A stretch of DNA of 22,365 nucleotides from a virus. The stretch is from the UHGV virus genome UHGV-1636268; one strand, written 5' to 3'. A program made the position numbers and the translations under genes. The notes beneath the pieces are model-generated. The model was not told where the DNA came from. It made no database searches and worked only from the letters and a program-made list of their open reading frames with translations. This document shows, piece by piece, positions 273 to 16,744 of this stretch. Each line of letters opens with the position of its first letter. Within the stretch, counting starts at the first letter, position 1.

Positions 273-1058
273 TTAGTTCTTTGCGTCTAAGAAGGTAAGT
301 TCTGGTGAAGAGAAGATTAACTCAATATCCTCATCAGTTCTTGCATAGATATAAGCATCTGCATCACTGCCAAATGTTACTGCAATTCTGTGATTGCTCT
401 TCGACAGGTGGGTAACTAGAGCGTTACTTAGAGACATCTTTTCAACCGGAGGGTTACTTTGATGTATCTTACCTTTTCTTCGTCTGAAGAGGGTAACTGC
501 GTTATCTGTGAACACAACTACACCTGCAAAGTATTCTGGTTCACAGTAGTTTTTCCAACCTGAGTGTAACTCATTATACATTTTTGCTTCATAGACATAC
601 AGATAAACATCTACACTCTTCATCACCTGATTAATGATAACTGTGACAGCTTGAGGGTCAAGTCCACCGATACCTGCACCAATCATAGGTAGACCAACTT
701 TCTTCAACTGGTTAACTTCACAGTATCTGTTAAGCTGTTTCAAGGATGACTCTAAAGCACTGTATCGGGCATCTTTACCAGTATGAAGTTGGGTGTAAAG
801 GTTAGCTATACGGCCTTGTTTTAAACGTGCTACAGAGAAATTACCTAGTAAATTTTCACAGGGTTTGTGACGAATGCCACCTGCAAACAGGTAAACTTCT
901 GTGTCAGTATCATACACTTTTGGATAACGCTTAGAAATAGTTGCTGCAATACCTGCACCCATGAAATTCATACAGTTGCAACCATGACCAATGATATCAA
1001 ATTTGCCTTTATCAAATGCGTCAAAGATATCACCTTTGATGATTTTTACAATACCCAT
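273..1058 (-). CDS. Macro-domain protein (ADP-ribose binding/processing family) with ~100-aa C-terminal extension of unknown function
   Basis: N-terminal GDIFDAFDKGKFDIIGHGCNCMNFMGAGIAATI fits the macro-domain pattern GDIT...DxIVNxxN...GxGVxxAI. Start trimmed to ATG at 1058..1056 (GGGAGAG SD 8 nt upstream), which overlaps the upstream stop as TAATG; the track's 1073 start is a TTG extension. Confidence 0.65.
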   Translation of the reverse strand: MGIVKIIKGDIFDAFDKGKFDIIGHGCNCMNFMGAGIAATISKRYPKVYDTDTEVYLFAGGIRHKPCENLLGNFSVARLKQGRIANLYTQLHTGKDARYSALESSLKQLNRYCEVNQLKKVGLPMIGAGIGGLDPQAVTVIINQVMKSVDVYLYVYEAKMYNELHSGWKNYCEPEYFAGVVVFTDNAVTLFRRRKGKIHQSNPPVEKMSLSNALVTHLSKSNHRIAVTFGSDADAYIYARTDEDIELIFSSPELTFLDAKN

Positions 1059-1258
1059 TAACATCTCTCCCAAGATTCTTTATCTTCTGAAGGTTTTACA
1101 CGTTGCCCTTCGTGGTCTACCCAGATACACCCACAACCTTCACAGATTACTGGCATTGCATAACCAGCTTTAAAGTCATCTTCAGTGATAAGACCTTCTA
1201 AGTCACCTGTATCACGTCCGAACATTTCGATAGAACAGTCTTTACAGAAGTCAGCCAT
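1058..1258 (-). CDS. Small Cys-rich protein (CxxC ... CxGCxC), putative zinc-binding
   Basis: 66-aa ORF with ATG start; cysteines at 5, 8, 39, 42, 44; stop overlaps the macro-domain start (TAATG). Confidence 0.5.
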   Translation of the reverse strand: MADFCKDCSIEMFGRDTGDLEGLITEDDFKAGYAMPVICEGCGCIWVDHEGQRVKPSEDKESWERC

Positions 1259-1803: not shown

Positions 1804-2073
1804 TTACTTCCTCGTTTTAAGAACTGCTAAGATTTCTTTAGAGTCTGGTAAGAACCATGTGTAGTGATTCTCTTTGATTTCTGGATGAGTGTCAACCTTT
1901 ATTTTGCACTCTTTACCAACATGCTTAAGTTGTGCTGTGACACCTTGCATAAAGATATGGCACATCACATTATCCATAATGGTTGGTGAGAAATCAACCC
2001 GCATATAAGTTTCTTTTGGTCGTGGTAGCAGTAAGTACCCTTCTACATAGAAAGTATCTTCGTTCTCTGTCAT
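1804..2073 (-). CDS. Hypothetical protein (89 aa)
   Basis: ATG at 2073..2071 overlaps the upstream stop as ATGA; no recognisable motif. Confidence 0.45.
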   Translation of the reverse strand: MTENEDTFYVEGYLLLPRPKETYMRVDFSPTIMDNVMCHIFMQGVTAQLKHVGKECKIKVDTHPEIKENHYTWFLPDSKEILAVLKTRK

Positions 2074-2339
2074 TGCTGCTTATTCCCTAATAAAATCATG
2101 TCAATAAGGTTATTAGCTTTGATTGTACACTGGTAAAATCCGTCACGGTAGAACTCAAGTGCTGCTGCTACATCACTACCTGTGTTGCCTTTGATAATAT
2201 ACCGTGATTCTTCTTGGGTGTACTTATCACTCTCACTTACTTGGGAGTTTTTGAATGTACTGCTCACTTTGTTCGTTGAACACCCTGACATAGTTATCAG
2301 TAACACAAACATTATAAAACTCTGGCTTAGTTTTTTCAT
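2070..2339 (-). CDS. Putative outer-membrane lipoprotein, candidate o-spanin (start embedded in the upstream gene, different frame)
   Basis: N-terminus MKKLSQSFIMFVLLITMSGC has a signal peptide and lipobox-like MSGC. The first 107 nt lie inside the 2233..2580 ORF in another frame. Not proline-rich, so the call is tentative. Confidence 0.4.
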   Translation of the reverse strand: MKKLSQSFIMFVLLITMSGCSTNKVSSTFKNSQVSESDKYTQEESRYIIKGNTGSDVAAALEFYRDGFYQCTIKANNLIDMILLGNKQQ

Positions 2340-2580
2340 ATGTTAGTACCTCTTTTGTATGCTTATTCTTAGCAAGCACATCTTTCAAATCATTTTTGTA
2401 ATTGGTGCTGAGTGTGGCTAAACCTTCCTGATAAGCATCTTTAGCAACACTTATTAGTTTCTCATTATTTAGCTCAGTTTCAGCAACTTGATAGTCTCTG
2501 TAAGAGTATCCTCCCCAGACACCTGCACCAACTAAGAAAACAATTATGAAAGTAGCTTGACAGAACTCTTTAAATGTCAT
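2233..2580 (-). CDS. Putative type-II membrane protein, candidate i-spanin
   Basis: Single N-terminal hydrophobic helix (ATFIIVFLVGAGVWGGY) followed by a charged, probably helical soluble domain; AGGAGA SD ~8 nt upstream of the ATG; overlaps the downstream lipoprotein ORF. Confidence 0.45.
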   Translation of the reverse strand: MTFKEFCQATFIIVFLVGAGVWGGYSYRDYQVAETELNNEKLISVAKDAYQEGLATLSTNYKNDLKDVLAKNKHTKEVLTYEKTKPEFYNVCVTDNYVRVFNEQSEQYIQKLPSK

Positions 2581-2599
2581 TTAACAATCTCCTAAAATG

Positions 2600-2620
2600 A
2601 AAAAGGCTCCCGAAGGAGCC
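2600..2620 (-). terminator. Rho-independent terminator (GGCTCC-cgaa-GGAGCC hairpin + T5 on minus strand)
   Basis: Perfect 6-bp GC-rich stem 2605-2610/2615-2620 with CGAA loop; plus-strand A-run 2600-2604 gives TTTTT 3' of the hairpin on the minus strand; 13 nt after the stop at 2633. Confidence 0.6.
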
Positions 2621-2632
2621 TGTATCTTAACC

Positions 2633-3097
2633 TTAACCGAGGACTTTAGCAAGGATATTCGCAGCCATCGAAGAAGCTTTTGCAGCAGCAGCTACCCCAG
2701 CTTTGATAGCGTTATCCTTGATAGCAGATACCGTTGCAGCATCAGTAAAGAGATAAGTAGTTGTTTTAGAACCACTTGTAAAGGAAAGCATAAGAGCAGT
2801 TTCCAGATTGAAAGAGCGATACGGAGCACCTTCTTTAACGATACCTTCAGCACCTAATTCTGAGGCCATCCCCATATCATAGATAGTCATCAGGTTTTCT
2901 TTGTGTGCAGTCGTTGAACCAGAACCTTTGACGTGTTTCTTAACATTCAAAAGAGCACGATACTCTCGGATGTTGCCGTCTGCTTTTACATTGACAGCAC
3001 GGAAGATTTTACCCTCAAAGTTGTTCTTGATAATGTTACGAACTACTTCAGATTTGTTTGCCGTAACGTCCAGTGCTACCGTAATGATATTGTTCAT
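2633..3097 (-). CDS. Hypothetical protein (154 aa), Ala/Gly/Ser/Thr-rich
   Basis: ATG start with GAGAGA SD; followed directly by a strong terminator; no recognisable catalytic motif. Confidence 0.55.
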   Translation of the reverse strand: MNNIITVALDVTANKSEVVRNIIKNNFEGKIFRAVNVKADGNIREYRALLNVKKHVKGSGSTTAHKENLMTIYDMGMASELGAEGIVKEGAPYRSFNLETALMLSFTSGSKTTTYLFTDAATVSAIKDNAIKAGVAAAAKASSMAANILAKVLG

Positions 3098-3107
3098 AAG
3101 TTTTCTC

Positions 3108-3803
3108 TCAATGTTTAACTAACATGGTTTTGATGTGTGGAAGGATTCTGTTCACCTTCTGCACATTCTTCTCTGTATCTTCTATAAAACATACTATATT
3201 AAAGTAAGGAAGAATGCAAGACTGAATCATCCTCACTTTCAAACTTTCTGCACTTATAGAGTTAGTTCCAAAACCACGCATAAAAAGCAAGTAATCATGC
3301 TCTATATTGTGCCTTAAAAACATCTCAGTAGGTATTCTCTGAGATTCACCTCTCGCTGTCAAGAGTCCAACAGCAGCATGATTAGCAATTGCATCAATGA
3401 TATTGAAAACATACGTTGGTTTTGCTCTTACAGAGTCAAGAAGATTAGTGTACTGTGAAAATGACCCATCAGTCAACTCCGTTGAACAATCTTCGTGATT
3501 AAAATTTGTAAGAACACCATCGATGTCTGCTAAGATGAGATTCCCTTTTTCTACAAGGTCTTTATTGACTATGACTAAGCTATCACGACTTACACCTACA
3601 GTTTGTCCAGTCTCTTTGTCCACAACGCTCACAATTGGTTCTGATGTGTGGAACTCTTCAAGTGAACATACAACTTCTCTTGCAGTATCTTCAAAATCCC
3701 TGCACTGTTCTGGAGTCCATGCGCAGGAATCAAGACCTAACTCATGAGGGTGTAAGTCGTAAGCATGGCACAGTACTTCATCAGACTTTCTTAATTTTTT
3801 CAT
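3108..3803 (-). CDS. HAD-superfamily phosphatase-like protein, possibly a 5'(3')-nucleotidase, with ~80-aa N-terminal extension
   Basis: LILADIDGVLTN matches HAD motif I (hhhhDxDG); LLTAR and FIEDTEKN are consistent with motifs II and IV. ATG at 3803; overlaps the upstream gene end by 23 nt, so the true start may be downstream. Confidence 0.5.
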   Translation of the reverse strand: MKKLRKSDEVLCHAYDLHPHELGLDSCAWTPEQCRDFEDTAREVVCSLEEFHTSEPIVSVVDKETGQTVGVSRDSLVIVNKDLVEKGNLILADIDGVLTNFNHEDCSTELTDGSFSQYTNLLDSVRAKPTYVFNIIDAIANHAAVGLLTARGESQRIPTEMFLRHNIEHDYLLFMRGFGTNSISAESLKVRMIQSCILPYFNIVCFIEDTEKNVQKVNRILPHIKTMLVKH

Positions 3804-4329
3804 GGTTTACCTTAGAAATATTTGTTGCAAATTCACATTGAGCAATAACTTTCATGTTGTTATAGACATCTTGAGAATATTTCTTAGCTTTAGGGATTCT
3901 GTACGAATACCCAGCATTATATGATGCTAAAACTTTTTGTAAAGTATTCTTTGACTTTGGCTGACCATGCACCTTTGTCCAAAACTCAAGCTCTTTGTGA
4001 GTTTCCTTAGCAGCATAATCAAAGTCTTTTAAGAGTTTCTTTTTAGCCACATTAGGACTAATTTTGTTACGCTTTACAACAGTCTTCAAGTGATTCTGGA
4101 AAATACCATAGTCATGGGTCTTTTTATTCTCTACCTTCAGACCTAACTCTGACTCTTGTAAGGCTATAGCAGCTAGAGTGATACCCCAACCTTTACCCAT
4201 ATTATTCTCACCATACTGGTAAGCTTTTAACATGTTTACTTTTTGGCTAATTGATAGCTCTGGGCAGTCAACTGCATAAGATAAGTGTGCTGTAAACATT
4301 AAGCACAAACCTAGAATCAATTTCTTCAT
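3781..4329 (-). CDS. Secreted soluble lytic transglycosylase (SLT-domain) protein
   Basis: N-terminal signal peptide MKKLILGLCLMFTAHLSYA; SLT family-1 motifs in order: QESELG (catalytic E-S), DYGIFQ (GLMQ-like), ASYNAGYS (AYNxG). Confidence 0.6.
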   Translation of the reverse strand: MKKLILGLCLMFTAHLSYAVDCPELSISQKVNMLKAYQYGENNMGKGWGITLAAIALQESELGLKVENKKTHDYGIFQNHLKTVVKRNKISPNVAKKKLLKDFDYAAKETHKELEFWTKVHGQPKSKNTLQKVLASYNAGYSYRIPKAKKYSQDVYNNMKVIAQCEFATNISKVNHEKIKKV

Positions 4330-4360: not shown

Positions 4361-4389
4361 ATTATACAGCACTCTGCACAAAATACAAA
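4361..4389 (-). promoter_or_regulatory. Sigma70-like promoter candidate for the SLT transcription unit
   Basis: On the minus strand: TTGTAT (4389..4384), 17-nt spacer, perfect TATAAT (4366..4361); ~30 nt upstream of the ATG at 4329 and immediately after the rIIB terminator. Confidence 0.3.
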
Positions 4390-4390
4390 T

Positions 4391-4412
4391 AAAAAAGGCC
4401 GCCGAAGCAGCC
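4391..4412 (-). terminator. Rho-independent terminator (GGCCGC-cgaa-GCAGCC hairpin flanked by A6/T4 runs)
   Basis: Stem 4397-4402/4407-4412 (5 pairs, 1 mismatch) with CGAA loop; A-run 4391-4396 gives TTTTTT on the minus strand; 17 nt after the rIIB stop. Flanking A/T runs could allow bidirectional function. Confidence 0.55.
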
Positions 4413-4429
4413 TTTTAAGAAATTACTTA

Positions 4430-5539
4430 TTAGATTTCACGTTTACGTTGAGAGATGAGTTCCCCAGCAGTACCAACGATGACATGCAAAGCTTCAGTCT
4501 TACCATCCCATGCTTTCAGAACTTTACGTTGATTATCAACGATTGCTGCAACTTCATAACGGGATGAACGCATCTTCATATCGTTGTAATCAGTCGGAAC
4601 AGATACAACATCTCGTGGATGGACACGAACCTTCAGAATTGTATCCCCTGAGAAGCAACGAACATAATCCCAAGCACCAACATGAAGACCTTGAGAGCAA
4701 GTCACGTTACGGTTATTATCAACCATCCAACGTGGCATTTCTACAATGTTACCCAAATCATTAGGTACTCTGTAGGTGTGGGAGTCAACCAGCTTGCCTT
4801 CACGAGTAGATACTTTCTTCCAACCAATGATGTAGCCTTCTTCATCAATTTCAACATCAAGGTGAGATACAAATCCCCAAAGTTGTTCTACAGAGTCTTT
4901 AGATGGGTTTTCCATCAGTTTTTCGAAGAACATTACAAGACGTTCAAAACCTTTATCACCAGTCTTCATCATGTGAAGAATACGGTCAACCAGAGTAGAA
5001 CGCATCTCAACAGCACCATAGAATAGCTTGTCACCTTTGATTGTGATAGCACCCTGAGTGAAGTTTTCGATAGACTTACGAATGTTCATTAGTTCAAATG
5101 CTTTCTTGAACTCGCCTTTCACAACGTGAACTACAATTTCTTGATAGTTCGGATGAGTAGACTCAACAATTTCAGATTCTGAACCGTAAGTCATAATTAC
5201 AGAGTCACCAGTAATCATGTACTCAATCTTGCCATCTTTCTGCATAGCTTCGTGCAGTTTATTTACTGGAGCTTTCTGTACAGCCTCTTTAACAACCTTT
5301 TTAACTGGCTTGTCAGCTTTCTTTTTAACTGATTTAGCAACTTGCTTCAAAGTCTTCGTAGCTGGTTTAGAAGTCACCTTCTTATTCCCTTTTAAGGTTG
5401 CTTCATGACGCTCTACAGCACGACCGACTGAACGGGTTGAGGTGTTAAATTTCTGTGCAATAGCGGTTTTAGTCAGCTTGCCCTCTTTAACCAGTTTGTA
5501 AATTTCTGCGTCAATCTGTGCTTTAGTTTTAGTAGTCAT
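4430..5539 (-). CDS. rIIB: RIIB-like protein
   Basis: Immediately downstream of the rIIA-like gene; size (369 aa) and segments such as CSQGLHVGAW and HPRDVVSVPTDYNDMKMRSSRYEV resemble T4 RIIB as recalled from memory; not checked by alignment. Confidence 0.65.
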   Translation of the reverse strand: MTTKTKAQIDAEIYKLVKEGKLTKTAIAQKFNTSTRSVGRAVERHEATLKGNKKVTSKPATKTLKQVAKSVKKKADKPVKKVVKEAVQKAPVNKLHEAMQKDGKIEYMITGDSVIMTYGSESEIVESTHPNYQEIVVHVVKGEFKKAFELMNIRKSIENFTQGAITIKGDKLFYGAVEMRSTLVDRILHMMKTGDKGFERLVMFFEKLMENPSKDSVEQLWGFVSHLDVEIDEEGYIIGWKKVSTREGKLVDSHTYRVPNDLGNIVEMPRWMVDNNRNVTCSQGLHVGAWDYVRCFSGDTILKVRVHPRDVVSVPTDYNDMKMRSSRYEVAAIVDNQRKVLKAWDGKTEALHVIVGTAGELISQRKREI

Positions 5540-5588
5540 CTTATTACTCTCTCTTGTTAGTTAATAAATCATTTTGTGATGCTATTTT

Positions 5589-5608
5589 AAGGGGCTTTGA
5601 AGCCCCTT
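5589..5608 (-). other. Stable hairpin between rIIA and rIIB (AAGGGGC-tttgaa-GCCCCTT) with no T-run
   Basis: 7-bp stem 5589-5595/5602-5608; the sequence 3' of it on the minus strand is AAAATAGC, so it is not a canonical terminator. Possible RNA processing or stability element, or partial attenuator. Confidence 0.3.
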
Positions 5609-5618
5609 GTCAAACACT

Positions 5619-7985
5619 TTAATCATAAATTGTAGTCCCTTCTGGAACACATTTTACATCAAAGCCTAAGAACTTACTCACTTCGATGGGTGACACTTTA
5701 TTCCAATCTAAATGAGAAAGCAAGAAGTTTTCTTGTTTTCTTTTTGAAAGGTAGTTTGTCACCTTAATGACCATACGGTCACCAGCTTTCTTAATTTTCT
5801 TGTAAAGCTTTGTATCATTGTCAAGACAGTCTTTCAAAGTTTTCAATACACTAATAGTATAAGTGTATGCAAATGGTGCAGCAACGTATTGGATTTTACC
5901 GAACATTGCCTCTACAGCATCTTCATTTCCTTCTAGGAAGATAGTTTTGTTTGTATCCCGTGAATAGCAATAGCCACGAGAAATCTTCCTGTTATTGAAT
6001 GTAAAGTTTCTGGCAATAATCCAGCTACTTGTAAGGTCAAGAACACCATTCATGTAGATGCGTGTCATATACCTGTTATGATTAATCCAATGAACATCAG
6101 TTAAGCTGTCGTTCAAGAGCTTCTCATCTACTTCAATCCAGTCTTCTGGTATCTTTTTCCAATTTGCTTTTCGGAAAACATAGACTGTCTTTCCAATAAC
6201 ATTAGCAACTGACTTAGCTACATCTTCTGGTGATGAGCAAAAACATTCACCATCAACTGTGTCACCAATTGCCTTAATGTAAAGCTGAGGTTCTTCAATT
6301 GTGTCTAAGTCCTCTGACACCTCTTTGTAGGAGGCTACACCTTCTGCTGGAACAGCTTTCCAGAGTTTTACAACACCTCTTACAGCTTCTTTACGCTGGT
6401 AATGGTGTTCCTTATCAGACATTTTCACAATCTTTAACAAGCTTTTATCAAGTTTGTGTAGATTGATTAAATCATCTAACTCTTTTTCAGTCGAGAATAC
6501 AAACACAATCCCATTGTATCTGTGAAACAGACTTGACTCACTGGCGTAGTCTCGACATGCACCACGCAAGATTTGATTGCGACCTACAGTCTTCTCAGTA
6601 CCATTTTTATTGCGACGGTCATTAATCACGAACAAAAACTGTTCAATTTGGCTTTTACGCATTGCGCCAAAGATATTGAACATACTTGCCTCTTGAGTGT
6701 AGGAAAGTGCTGTTGCACGAATCTTACTCTCTAAAGAGTTGAACTTGACATAAGCAACTGGATTATAAAGATAATCTACTTTAGGGATATTGTTCCCGTT
6801 CCTATCAACCTTAATATTACCTTTGCCGTCACGTTCATAAATGACTGAGCCGTCTTCTGCGTAGATAATTCCACGACGAATGTTTAGCAATTCTTCTTCC
6901 AGAGAATCAAGCTTAACGCCACCCCACTCTAGCTTTGGACACACAGCATTAAACATCTCTCGTGAGTTCAAACGTAACTCAGCATAAGCCTGTGCAGCAT
7001 CCATGAGTGTAGGTTGGCTATTAACTTTCTTGATAACATCCTTTGTAATGGCTTCAGTTATCTTTTTAGTAGCCTCAATGATAACATTTTTTGTCGTGTC
7101 ATTCATCTGCAATGCTTCACGAGAAGCTGCAATAGCAACTGAACCAATAGGCATGTAGATGTTTACAAGGTCTACGCTCCTACGGAAAAATTCTGGCAAT
7201 ACTTTGAAGAAATCATCACCAAGTAACGCTTCCATGTTAACAGGGTAGGCAATGTTACCCATCACCACATTAAACTCTGTCCTGTTACCACTAGAACGCC
7301 AGCTTTGCTTATGAATCATGGCATCATAAACACCCTCTTCACGGGCAATGACGTTCATATCTGCTAATACATCGTCGTACACAATATTACTTTCTGGTTT
7401 TACAGCAAAGTATGAGTATACATTACCAGCTTCTTCAAAGAACTTTGAGATACGGTGGTCAGCAACTGCCACACGTACAGCTAAACCATTAGGTTCATTT
7501 GTTTGGTTAGTAGTAAGCTTAGTTACTTGAGGGATACCATTCTCAAGGTAAACAGAGTACTTATTAACAACACCATCAACATAGCTAGATACTGTGAATG
7601 ACTGAGCAATTGCAAACGGTGACTTTGAGCCGATGCCCATTGCACCAATGTAGTCATTAGAGTCATTCTTCGTAGAAGCCCCGTAGTTCAGATACAAACT
7701 CATTACTTTGTCATGGGTTAAACCAGTTCCAAAGTCACGGACTTCAAAGTAAGGCTCAAATCGAGTAGGCAAATGCACATGGAACGGGATGTTTTCTTTT
7801 CCAGCTTCTTTCTGAGCATCTACTGCGTTACATGACAGTTCACGAATCACTGCCCTTTCTTTAAACGTGTATACACCAGAACTCAAAAGGCTGAACATTT
7901 CAGGTGTCATTGTAATCTGTGCTTGAGACGTCTCTAAAGAAGTTGAACTCTTAATCACTTCTGCGTGGTCGTTTACCATGCGCAT
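5619..7985 (-). CDS. rIIA: RIIA-like protein with N-terminal GHKL (histidine-kinase-like) ATPase domain
   Basis: GHKL motifs near the N-terminus: N-box ELSCNAVDA, G1 box VRDFGTGL, G2 box GAMGIGSKS. Size (788 aa) and position next to rIIB match T4 rIIA. Confidence 0.8.
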   Translation of the reverse strand: MRMVNDHAEVIKSSTSLETSQAQITMTPEMFSLLSSGVYTFKERAVIRELSCNAVDAQKEAGKENIPFHVHLPTRFEPYFEVRDFGTGLTHDKVMSLYLNYGASTKNDSNDYIGAMGIGSKSPFAIAQSFTVSSYVDGVVNKYSVYLENGIPQVTKLTTNQTNEPNGLAVRVAVADHRISKFFEEAGNVYSYFAVKPESNIVYDDVLADMNVIAREEGVYDAMIHKQSWRSSGNRTEFNVVMGNIAYPVNMEALLGDDFFKVLPEFFRRSVDLVNIYMPIGSVAIAASREALQMNDTTKNVIIEATKKITEAITKDVIKKVNSQPTLMDAAQAYAELRLNSREMFNAVCPKLEWGGVKLDSLEEELLNIRRGIIYAEDGSVIYERDGKGNIKVDRNGNNIPKVDYLYNPVAYVKFNSLESKIRATALSYTQEASMFNIFGAMRKSQIEQFLFVINDRRNKNGTEKTVGRNQILRGACRDYASESSLFHRYNGIVFVFSTEKELDDLINLHKLDKSLLKIVKMSDKEHHYQRKEAVRGVVKLWKAVPAEGVASYKEVSEDLDTIEEPQLYIKAIGDTVDGECFCSSPEDVAKSVANVIGKTVYVFRKANWKKIPEDWIEVDEKLLNDSLTDVHWINHNRYMTRIYMNGVLDLTSSWIIARNFTFNNRKISRGYCYSRDTNKTIFLEGNEDAVEAMFGKIQYVAAPFAYTYTISVLKTLKDCLDNDTKLYKKIKKAGDRMVIKVTNYLSKRKQENFLLSHLDWNKVSPIEVSKFLGFDVKCVPEGTTIYD

Positions 7986-8013: not shown

Positions 8014-8190
8014 TTACTTATTAAACATTTTACCAGAACCACCACACATAGGGCAACATCCTGCCCTTATGTACCCCTCTCCATTACAGTAGTCACATTT
8101 TTTGTGCTCTGCAAAGTACTTACAAAGGAGGTAAACAAATACTGCTACACTACCAAGTGACAGTAAAATTTCTATCCAATATGCTTGCAT
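8014..8190 (-). CDS. Unannotated small ORF (58 aa): membrane-anchored protein with two DnaJ-type CxxCxGxG zinc-finger motifs
   Basis: Translated by hand: MQAYWIEILLSLGSVAVFVYLLCKYFAEHKKCDYCNGEGYIRAGCCPMCGGSGKMFNK. One hydrophobic helix, then CDYCNGEG and CPMCGGSG. ATG at 8190..8188 preceded by GAGGTGA SD; stop TAA at 8016..8014. Below the 60-aa cutoff of the ORF track. Confidence 0.4.
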   Translation of the reverse strand: MQAYWIEILLSLGSVAVFVYLLCKYFAEHKKCDYCNGEGYIRAGCCPMCGGSGKMFNK

Positions 8191-13601: not shown

Positions 13602-13993
13602 TCAAACACCACCTGACAAGGAACCTGTTTAGTAATAAATTCTTCACAGTGCTCTTTAATGAAGTTTTGTAATGGTACACAATCTTGTGCGCAAGTCATT
13701 AGCATAATGTACTCTGGATTCATGATGTTTTCAAGACTGTAGAAGACAATATCGTTAGATAGTTCATGACCGTCTTCTTCAGACCAAGTTCCAGTGACTA
13801 CAGCTAATTTGTCAAGCAATTCATTAGGCAATGCTACACCATCTTCTACAGAATCACTTAGAACATTGTCTCCGATATACAATGTGAAGGTCGTATGGAA
13901 TGTTGAGTATCTTACGTGATTCTTTTCGCAAGAACCACACTCTGAGGCGTAATCTTTAATCCACTCTAACTGTTTTTGGTTTAACTTAATCAT
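13598..13993 (-). CDS. Hypothetical protein (131 aa), Cys-containing
   Basis: ATG at 13993..13991 overlaps the upstream stop as ATGA; contains a CGSCEKNH segment. Confidence 0.5.
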   Translation of the reverse strand: MIKLNQKQLEWIKDYASECGSCEKNHVRYSTFHTTFTLYIGDNVLSDSVEDGVALPNELLDKLAVVTGTWSEEDGHELSNDIVFYSLENIMNPEYIMLMTCAQDCVPLQNFIKEHCEEFITKQVPCQVVFE

Positions 13994-14190
13994 AATTTCA
14001 CCTTAGTTGGTAATGCACTGAATGCTATAGCTAACCCTAAAAATGGTTTGAAGCATGACCATAAATCCATCTGACCATGATATGATAAACTCCATTGTGG
14101 GTCTGAAAAACCCCATACCACAACACTAACCCCAAAGAAGAAGATTAGGATGTGGAGAATGTATATCAACGATTTTGATATTTTAAACAT
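13990..14190 (-). CDS. Small hydrophobic protein (66 aa), predicted membrane protein
   Basis: Two hydrophobic stretches; ATG start; stop coupled by ATGA to the downstream gene, which supports it being real. Confidence 0.4.
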   Translation of the reverse strand: MFKISKSLIYILHILIFFFGVSVVVWGFSDPQWSLSYHGQMDLWSCFKPFLGLAIAFSALPTKVKL

Positions 14191-14344
14191 TTTAACTTGC
14201 CTCTTAATTCACAATAAGAGAGTCCTAAAAAGAACCCTAGTAAGACAGAACCTATGAATAGGCCAATGATGTTCTCTGCCATATCTAACATCCAATAAAA
14301 AAGGTGATGTAAGCCTATCAAGACTCACACCACCATGTCAAGTT

Positions 14345-16537: not shown

Positions 16538-16744
16538 TTAAATCTTTTTAGAAAACTTCGCAAAGAGTTCTCTTAGTTTTTCAGTGATACCTAACTGTAT
16601 CTCTAATATTTCGAAGATAACCCATAGTAACATGGCTCCAAACAATGAACCTTGTTCAAAGTCAGTAAATAGATTAACAATAAGCATACCAATCACAATA
16701 GCTGGTGCATCAACAACAAAACCTTCCCAAATGCGTTTAAGCAT
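16538..16744 (-). CDS. Small hydrophobic protein (68 aa), predicted membrane protein
   Basis: Hydrophobic core AIVIGMLIVNLF...LFGAMLLWVIF; ATG start overlapping the end of the redoxin gene. Confidence 0.4.
   Translation of the reverse strand: MLKRIWEGFVVDAPAIVIGMLIVNLFTDFEQGSLFGAMLLWVIFEILEIQLGITEKLRELFAKFSKKI

Follow-up and report, generated by a model that had tools for sequence, protein, structure and literature searches.

The 22,365-nucleotide (22.4-kb) window analysed here, which is the whole stretch of DNA taken from the virus genome UHGV-1636268, carries two overlapping genes for a small membrane protein and a lipoprotein and, 1.2 kb from the start of the first of them, the end of a gene for a secreted protein with an SLT-type lytic transglycosylase domain. 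We read the overlapping genes as the two-component spanin of the phage, a member of the overlapped class that has already been catalogued and that brings no new biology, and the third gene as coding for a separate Vs.1-type enzyme of glycoside hydrolase family 23 (GH23). On this reading a FelixO1-like virulent myophage has two functions directed at the envelope that are unrelated to each other, and to the joint reading we give a probability of about 0.85. A preliminary description of the sequence had placed all three genes in one lysis-related set. The spanin part of that set stands, since the pair is catalogued, is under selection in both frames and has homologues in lysis cassettes. The SLT protein we take out of it, as a Vs.1 homologue whose gene is bracketed by terminator-like hairpins and whose genus has its own PF00959 endolysin and an annotated holin elsewhere. 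The window is 95-96% identical in nucleotide sequence to Felixounavirus (FelixO1-like) myophages over 99% of its length, and all of its substantial open reading frames (ORFs) are on the minus strand. The main features are the following.

2233-2580, minus strand: i-spanin gene, 115 aa, with a membrane helix at about residues 6-24; phrog_1152; listed for Felix01.
2070-2339, minus strand: o-spanin gene, 89-aa precursor, with a predicted 19-aa signal for signal peptidase II (SPase II), the lipobox TMSG-C20 cut before the Cys, Ser at +2 and a mature form of 70 aa.
2233-2339, minus strand: dual-coding overlap of 107 nt; the o-spanin gene, read in the +1 frame, has its start within the i-spanin gene and its end beyond it.
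2589-2593, minus strand: AGGAG, by direct reading the Shine-Dalgarno sequence of the i-spanin gene, at 8 nt before its ATG.
2349-2352, minus strand: GAGG, the Shine-Dalgarno sequence of the o-spanin gene, at 9 nt before its ATG (2339) and still within the coding part of the i-spanin gene.
3781-4329, minus strand: Vs.1-family GH23 (SLT-type) lytic transglycosylase-like gene, 182 aa, with a signal peptide at about residues 1-19 and a predicted catalytic Glu59 in the ES motif.

The export signals of the spanin pair were called with rule-based checks (Kyte-Doolittle hydropathy and a PROSITE PS51257-type rule), supplemented by the curated entry for Felix01 in the spanin census of Kongari et al. (2018, BMC Bioinformatics 19:326), with which the calls agree. 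As the preliminary description had proposed, the 115-aa protein has one hydrophobic segment at its N-terminus (residues 6-24, Kyte-Doolittle 19-residue mean of 1.75) and none elsewhere, and the 89-aa protein starts with a signal peptide and an MSGC lipobox. The N-terminus of the latter consists of MKK, a hydrophobic stretch and the residues MFVLLITMSGC, and conforms to the PS51257-type rule, with Cys20, a Lys or Arg among the first seven residues and Ser at +2. The 115-aa protein is predicted to be a type II inner-membrane protein with its N-terminus inside and its C-terminus outside, and with a mostly helical periplasmic domain; the census lists for the Felix01 i-spanin a periplasmic part of 88 aa, of which 66% is predicted helix (Kongari 2018). 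Its conserved C-terminal motif, EKTKPxFxNxCxTDxYxRxFN, includes Cys92. For the 89-aa lipoprotein, the Ser at +2 predicts sorting to the outer membrane. Its mature form has a variable linker followed by a conserved C-terminal segment (LEFYRDGFYQC71..NNLID) and contains no proline at all, in line with the earlier remark that it is not proline-rich. In a low-confidence AlphaFold2 model (predicted local distance difference test, pLDDT, of 59.6) the linker is disordered at residues 17-44 and a helix spans residues 54-88. Each protein has one periplasmic Cys, Cys92 in the i-spanin and Cys71 in the o-spanin, and both residues are kept in every lineage examined.

In the overlap, the final 35 codons of the i-spanin gene, coding for the best-conserved motif of that protein, share their DNA with the opening 35 codons of the o-spanin gene, which cover the signal peptide, the lipobox and the beginning of the linker. 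Both the length of the overlap and its +1 frame are identical in all 31 Felixounavirus loci examined, and this overlapped i-spanin/o-spanin layout, recognised from the sequence in the preliminary description, is also the one published for Felix01 and annotated in relatives.

We compared 29 related loci from viral contigs together with annotated GenBank relatives, which gave 29 distinct Felixounavirus DNA sequences. Outside the overlap, the ratio of nonsynonymous to synonymous polymorphism (pN/pS) is 0.149 for the i-spanin gene and 0.105 for the o-spanin gene, where variation is found at 46 of 55 third positions and at 8 of 54 second positions, while the wrong-frame controls on the same regions give values of 1.0-1.9. 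Within the 107-nt overlap nucleotide diversity is halved (0.052 vs 0.11 and 0.15 in the flanks), and neither frame has an excess of variable third positions. Such a pattern is what dual coding leaves behind: purifying selection acts on both frames, and both encode real proteins. It disposes of the idea that the 89-aa ORF is a chance product of the alternative frame and that the membrane protein alone is real, an idea that could appeal to the several GenBank records in which the ORF is omitted or called in a shortened form without its signal peptide. A chance ORF would not have a pN/pS of 0.105 and a strong third-position bias in its own frame when wrong frames give 1.0-1.9, nor would overlap diversity be halved; moreover the full-length ORF, its start, its ribosome-binding site and its lipobox are kept in 31 of 31 Felixounavirus loci, and by eye the lipobox is present in all distant homologues as well. 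We therefore regard this explanation as refuted by the codon-position and pN/pS analysis, with a residual probability close to nil.

The way the o-spanin is recorded in databases deserves a separate remark. Calls of this gene are often shortened to 73 or 68 aa, and in some genomes it is not called. The call in phage humlepung (222 nt) would begin at Met17, with loss of the signal peptide. A search of large databases with the o-spanin returned close relatives only, many of them with shortened gene calls, and it was on these sequences that the low-confidence o-spanin model was based.

The identity of the pair is already on record. Kongari et al. (2018) place Felix01 in the overlapped class of their census, in the 'JH2' family, and their supplement lists its two genes at 5330-5678 and 5571-5841, with an overlap of 107 nt and products of 115 and 89 aa. 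The Felix01 o-spanin is entered there as 89/70/19 aa, with a 19-aa signal, the lipobox TMSG-C and the mature N-terminus CST; one periplasmic Cys is recorded in each protein, as are both ribosome-binding sites. Compared with these FelixO1 proteins, the i-spanin of the window is 98% and the o-spanin 99% identical, so that a few amino-acid substitutions are the only changes: lengths, overlap, ribosome-binding sites, lipobox and Cys residues are all equal, and the architecture does not differ. Many GenBank relatives annotate the pair as i-spanin and o-spanin, in the case of phage Meda with the remark 'Identified by ISP/OSP tool'. The i-spanin matches phrog_1152, 'Rz-like spanin', with an E-value of 8e-42, and the o-spanin matches phrog_456 weakly (E 3.4e-4). 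Some of the database records touched by these searches bear unexpected host names: the o-spanin of 'Campylobacter phage A132' is 95.5% identical to that of the window, a Staphylococcus-named record is among the near-identical matches, and 'Listeria phage LPML1' has an i-spanin homologue with 38% identity. Wrong host labels or contaminated assemblies would seem to be the cause.

Homologues of both proteins, with 26-39% identity, were found by tblastn in four other groups: the Kuravirus podophages (phiEco32, EcoN5), Kolesnikvirus (phiEa104), Gorganvirus (Proteus phage Isfahan) and two P2-like phages of the Peduoviridae (vB_YenM_324 and ESSI2_ev040). The +1 overlapped layout is present in six of the six loci with distant homologues. 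The i-spanins keep the C-terminal motif EKxKPxFxNxCxxDxYxxxFN with its Cys, and the o-spanins of Kuravirus, Peduoviridae, Kolesnikvirus and Gorganvirus keep the lipobox and the C-terminal motif LExYxDxYxxC...NxL(I/V)D, again with its Cys. In Yersinia phage vB_YenM_324 and Escherichia phage ESSI2_ev040 the gene order is holin, endolysin, i-spanin, o-spanin, the first two being annotated as such. In the siphophage Isfahan the homologues follow a gene for a TIGR02594-family protein, which we take to be the endolysin. This cassette context in distant relatives is support for the spanin assignment that is independent of the annotation of FelixO1-like genomes.

The pair thus combines an N-terminal transmembrane helix in one protein, a lipobox without Asp at +2 in the other, a +1 overlap with both frames coding and a periplasmic Cys in each. 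Several points nevertheless weigh against calling it a spanin. In this genome the pair adjoins neither endolysin nor holin: a scan of all window ORFs for hydrophobic segments found no holin within about 5 kb of the three genes, the preliminary description had identified none either, and in the relative humlepung the endolysin and holin genes are tens of kb away. The census lists the Felix01 i-spanin without a predicted coiled coil (Kongari 2018, supplementary file 4). The o-spanin is proline-free and, according to the low-confidence model, possibly largely helical, unlike Rz1. Neither protein has sequence similarity to the tested spanins of T4, and in the literature searched we found no experiments on the FelixO1-type spanin family, whose assignment is bioinformatic everywhere.

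Comparison with the two best-known systems puts some of these points in proportion. As in T4, where the spanins are PseT.3 and PseT.2, the pair consists of a small type II inner-membrane protein and an outer-membrane lipoprotein, encoded in an early/metabolic block near a polynucleotide kinase (PNK)-type gene and far from holin and endolysin. The T4 genes, however, abut one another and belong to the separated class, whereas here they overlap by 107 nt; they are located upstream of pseT and not, as here, downstream of a PNK-like gene; and the T4 i-spanin has no periplasmic Cys and the o-spanin two, in place of one in each protein. Homology with the T4 spanins, considered because of the shared PNK-type neighbourhood, was rejected: the i-spanin has no similarity to PseT.3 (BLASTP E 18), between the o-spanin and PseT.2 the signal peptides alone align (BLASTP E 0.04), and with a different gene order the synteny is loose at best. 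PseT.2, which has been functionally tested, is itself without a proline-rich region, and secondary structure is predicted for it (Kongari 2018), so that missing prolines do not disqualify an o-spanin. Linkage to a lysis cassette is a usual and not a defining feature of spanins, and those of T4 are likewise unlinked. With lambda Rz/Rz1 the pair shares the two-protein topology, the +1 frame of the o-spanin and the periplasmic Cys residues for intermolecular disulfides. Unlike Rz1, which is proline-rich, unstructured and encoded entirely within Rz, the o-spanin gene here runs 163 nt past the i-spanin gene, and the proline-free mature product has a conserved C-terminal segment that is probably helical.

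The position of the pair in an early/metabolic region, far from endolysin and holin, would be explained if it were not a spanin but an early modifier of the envelope, acting in superinfection exclusion or receptor masking in the manner of the T5 lipoprotein Llp or of T4 Imm and Sp. The lack of the proline-rich character of Rz1, the absence of a predicted coiled coil in the Felix01 i-spanin and the fact that spanin function has been assigned to the pair from sequence would be in keeping with such a role. However, an envelope modifier would not be expected to fill the spanin slot after holin and endolysin, as the overlapped homologues do in the two P2-like phages, or to follow a presumptive endolysin, as in the Proteus siphophage. 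The proven T4 spanins are themselves found among early genes, near the PNK gene and without a proline-rich region, and no other spanin candidate is annotated in FelixO1-like genomes. We consider an envelope modifier very improbable and retain the spanin assignment.

If the pair works as spanins do elsewhere, the 115-aa protein would be anchored in the inner membrane by its N-terminal helix, with its mostly helical domain extending into the periplasm, and the 89-aa protein would be exported, cut by SPase II, lipidated on Cys20 and sorted to the outer membrane. The C-terminal regions of the two would meet in the periplasm, passing through the mesh of the peptidoglycan, and bind to one another, and the single conserved Cys in each would probably form homodimer disulfides. 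Peptidoglycan would restrain the complexes until the endolysin destroyed the wall; they would then collapse, the inner and outer membranes would fuse and lysis would be complete. Lipidation, complex formation and membrane fusion are steps that we infer from the standard spanin model.

Turning to the SLT gene, the preliminary description of a secreted protein with the motifs QESELG, DYGIFQ and ASYNAG is borne out by the coordinates, the signal, the conservation of the motifs, a profile match to EtgA and the predicted structure. The N-terminus, MKK-LILGLCLMFTAHLSYA followed by VD after the presumed cleavage site, can be read as a Sec signal in which position -3 is S and position -1 is A. By direct reading its hydrophobic core is short, about 13 residues (LILGLCLMFTAHL), with Gly, Ala, Ser or Thr at 5 of 16 residues; the core is followed by the site S-Y-A before V, and similar small-x-small sites are present in homologues. 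A possible lipobox within this signal peptide (LGLC9) was rejected on account of the Leu at -1 and a Cys too near the N-terminus. In an alignment of 14 homologues, reaching down to 30% identity, E59, Q78, Y137, N138, G140 and Y151 are invariant, and S60 and G75 are conserved in at least 90%. Judged from the alignment, these residues are the motifs of family-1 lytic transglycosylases (ES, GxFQ, YNxG and a downstream Tyr).

Some results speak against the assignment to GH23. The protein scores 19.0 bits against the Pfam SLT family (PF01464), just below the gathering cut-off of 21.3, and a direct sequence search of the PDB with it found nothing. A Foldseek search with its AlphaFold2 model, which is confident (pLDDT 83.8, predicted template modelling score of 0.78), returned weak E-values, 2e-3 at best. 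All of the top Foldseek matches, on the other hand, are GH23 enzymes, and the Pfam SLT threshold is passed by T4 Vs.1 (25.1 bits) and by five more distant homologues (precomputed matches). When the alignment was used as a profile against the PDB, EtgA, a lytic transglycosylase specialised for a type III secretion system (T3SS), came first (E 2.4e-4), and goose-type lysozymes came next. The PHROG matched by the protein, PHROG 600, has no assigned function. From the model and the motifs, a GH23 (goose-lysozyme/SLT) fold with an intact catalytic motif set is well supported. The protein would be either a transglycosylase or a hydrolase, with a putative periplasmic localisation; its enzymatic activity and expression timing are equally putative.

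The SLT protein is homologous to T4 Vs.1 along its full length and also in the signal peptide; identity across residues 1-155 is 32% (E 2e-16). At the N-terminus of both, M-(K/R)-K leads into hydrophobic residues and then a small-x-small site, and the two agree in size and in the ES, GxFQ and YNxG motifs. Both are encoded among early/metabolic genes in phages that have a separate lysozyme endolysin. They differ in their surroundings, as the neighbours here are rIIB and the PNK-like gene and in T4 they are regB and vs, and in a pair of Cys residues (C22 and C165) that the Ounavirinae proteins carry and T4 Vs.1 lacks. The FelixO1 record already describes the equivalent ORF as a 'hypothetical 20.7 KD protein in vs-regB intergenic region', which is T4 Vs.1. 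By tblastn, the family, widespread among large virulent phages, is present in 2,144 of 50,697 phage records, among T4-like, FelixO1-like, Vi1-like, Vibrio, Aeromonas, Klebsiella and Acinetobacter myophages. From their sequences its members appear to be Sec-exported single-domain GH23 enzymes, always found alongside a separate cytoplasmic endolysin. Nolan et al. (2006) listed T4 vs.1 as a conserved ORF without assigned function, reported its marginal SLT match and suggested 'some role in cell lysis'; theirs was the sole paper on Vs.1 found in the literature searched, which yielded no functional study.

The comparison with EtgA, from enteropathogenic Escherichia coli, has its limits: EtgA is a bacterial enzyme recruited by a partner in the secretion machine, and it has about 20% identity to the phage protein in the structural alignment. 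IagB, IpgF and VirB1 are further Sec-exported lytic transglycosylases specialised for secretion systems. We know of no partner or machine for the phage SLT protein.

Homologues of Vs.1 also carry a label of a different kind in databases. A coding sequence of Erwinia phage phiEa104 (FQ482083.1, 4761-5273) bears the annotation 'predicted T4 endoribonuclease RegB'. Its product is homologous, with 46% identity (E 1e-46), to the SLT/Vs.1 protein and has no similarity to T4 RegB (E 45), so the label was probably carried over from the neighbouring T4 gene. 'RegB' or 'endoribonuclease' is also the label of Vs.1 homologues in Pistou, moki and the O157 typing phages 7 and 13.

Two strong hairpins that resemble intrinsic terminators, both found by a terminator scan and both matched in the phage Meda record, where a terminator is annotated at each of the equivalent positions, set the SLT gene, the PNK-like gene and a gene for a 154-aa protein apart from rIIB upstream and from the spanin genes downstream.

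4393-4416, minus strand: terminator-like hairpin between rIIB and the SLT gene.
2604-2621, minus strand: terminator-like hairpin AGGCTCC-TTCG-GGAGCCT with a T run, directly upstream of the i-spanin ribosome-binding site.

The SLT protein is probably not the endolysin of FelixO1-like phages, because these phages carry a separate canonical endolysin and because the SLT gene is bracketed by the two hairpins. In the relative humlepung a T4-lysozyme-type endolysin (PF00959, 139.5 bits) is encoded elsewhere in the genome, and the tail-fibre operon ends with an annotated holin gene. T4 mutants in e do not lyse although they carry vs.1, and a Vs.1-type protein is therefore not sufficient for lysis and not the endolysin. 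The genome papers on phages Moogle and Meda name the T4-type lysozyme of the genus as the endolysin, and they describe endolysin, i-spanin and o-spanin of FelixO1-like phages as scattered around the genome and not gathered in a cassette.

A different role would be that of a second endolysin, exported by Sec in advance and inactive or weakly active until the holin collapses the membrane potential. Enzymes of this kind exist: Lys44, the signal-peptide endolysin of Oenococcus phage fOg44, and the signal-anchor-release (SAR) endolysins are released when the holin collapses the membrane potential. Were this true of the SLT protein, its earlier grouping with the lysis genes would be right. The conserved N-terminal export signal together with the intact set of GH23 catalytic motifs would suit such an enzyme, 'putative lysin' is its label in some GenBank records, and the lysis role proposed for vs.1 by Nolan et al. 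(2006) points the same way. But the genus already has its canonical cytoplasmic lysozyme, as described above, and for T4 the phenotype of e mutants argues against it. The SLT gene is located between rIIB and the PNK-like gene, in an early/metabolic block and between the two hairpins, and the hydrophobic-segment scan of window ORFs found no holin-like gene beside it. Finally, by direct reading, the N-terminus looks more like a short cleavable signal with an AxA-type site than like a Gly/Ala-rich SAR anchor. We consider a second endolysin unlikely. An enzyme carried in the virion to pierce the wall was also considered, and was rejected in view of the conserved Sec signal and the position of the gene among early genes.

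As a Vs.1-type enzyme separate from lysis, the SLT protein would be exported by Sec and, after cleavage of its signal, would act as a soluble periplasmic GH23 (SLT-type) muralytic enzyme. Its role would most likely be accessory and non-essential, a remodelling or weakening of peptidoglycan during infection and not the holin-controlled endolysin step. More specific non-endolysin roles can be imagined for the Vs.1 family, for example a local opening of the peptidoglycan mesh during infection, to let spanins or other complexes that span the envelope assemble, or the conditioning of the wall for rapid lysis of slow-growing cells; we regard these as speculative and improbable. The SLT gene is found within about 3 kb upstream of the spanin genes in the Ounavirinae (seen in Felixounavirus and Kolesnikvirus), a proximity that is compatible with a functional link.

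The remaining features of this part of the window are the following.

4361-4366, minus strand: TATAAT, a perfect -10 hexamer with a weak -35, 31 nt upstream of the SLT start codon, by direct reading.
3108-3803, minus strand: gene annotated as 'polynucleotide kinase', 231 aa, not a lysis gene; phrog_3970; phosphatase-type motif DIDGVL of the haloacid dehalogenase (HAD) class; overlaps the SLT gene by 23 nt.
2633-3097, minus strand: gene for a protein of 154 aa, function not assigned; phrog_2267; no Pfam match; located between the PNK-like gene and the terminator preceding the spanin genes.

The TATAAT at 4361-4366 did not pass a two-hexamer promoter scan; it is a candidate host-type promoter for the unit made up of the SLT, PNK-like and 154-aa genes. 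With the hairpin at 2604-2621 in front of them, transcription of the spanin genes would need read-through or a start further upstream. At the other end of the pair, in the sequence ATGA (2070-2073), the o-spanin gene ends on a stop codon that overlaps with the start of the gene after it. This following gene is an 89-aa ORF (1804-2073, minus strand, phrog_4391) of unknown function, and the overlap suggests that translation of the spanin pair may be coupled to that of the small genes downstream.

In the direction of transcription, the SLT gene is preceded by genes of nucleotide metabolism (nrdA, nrdB, nrdD, an nrdG-like gene and the genes for glutaredoxin, NadV and a phosphoribosyl pyrophosphate synthetase-like protein), and then by rIIA and rIIB. 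After rIIB come the SLT-like gene, the 'polynucleotide kinase'-like gene, the gene of the 154-aa protein, the membrane-protein/lipoprotein pair, small unknown genes and the gene of a macro-domain protein. Alignment of the 231-aa PNK-like protein with T4 Pnkp is weak and confined to the C-terminal phosphatase half, around the DxDG HAD motif. The PNK-like protein has no visible Walker A motif and no Pfam match, and may be a phosphatase-only protein. In phage Meda this gene is split by a stop codon, which was confirmed by resequencing. The 154-aa protein ends in an Ala-rich tail (AGVAAAAKASSMAANILAKVLG) and, as far as can be told, its gene is not part of lysis.

The gene of the macro-domain protein (273-1073, minus strand; 266 aa, Pfam Macro 30 bits) follows the spanin pair at a distance of about 1 kb downstream. 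The FelixO1 record likens the equivalent ORF to one of T4 in the tk-vs region, possibly Tk.4, and in phiEco32 the gene immediately after the homologous spanin pair is an 'Appr-1-p processing' macro-domain gene. The presence of a macro-domain gene downstream of the pair in both places is either a recurring linkage or a coincidence.

Small ORFs with predicted membrane helices occupy gaps between the larger genes of the window, and nothing seen in them points to lysis. One of 68 aa (16538-16744, minus strand), located between nrdD and the glutaredoxin gene, has two hydrophobic segments; two others, of 66 and 51 aa, are found upstream of nrdD (13990-14190 and 14166-14321, both minus strand), and one of 58 aa is found upstream of rIIA (8014-8190, minus strand).

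What is new in this analysis is the purifying selection on both frames of the spanin pair, the persistence of the layout and of the Cys residues in distant homologues, and the spanin position of those homologues in the lysis cassettes of three other phages, beside an endolysin that is annotated or presumed. Beyond correct annotation the significance is small. The dual-frame selection test identifies the full 89-aa o-spanin as the conserved form, and the SLT protein should be labelled a Vs.1-family GH23 enzyme with no role assigned, and not a 'lysin' or a 'RegB endoribonuclease'.

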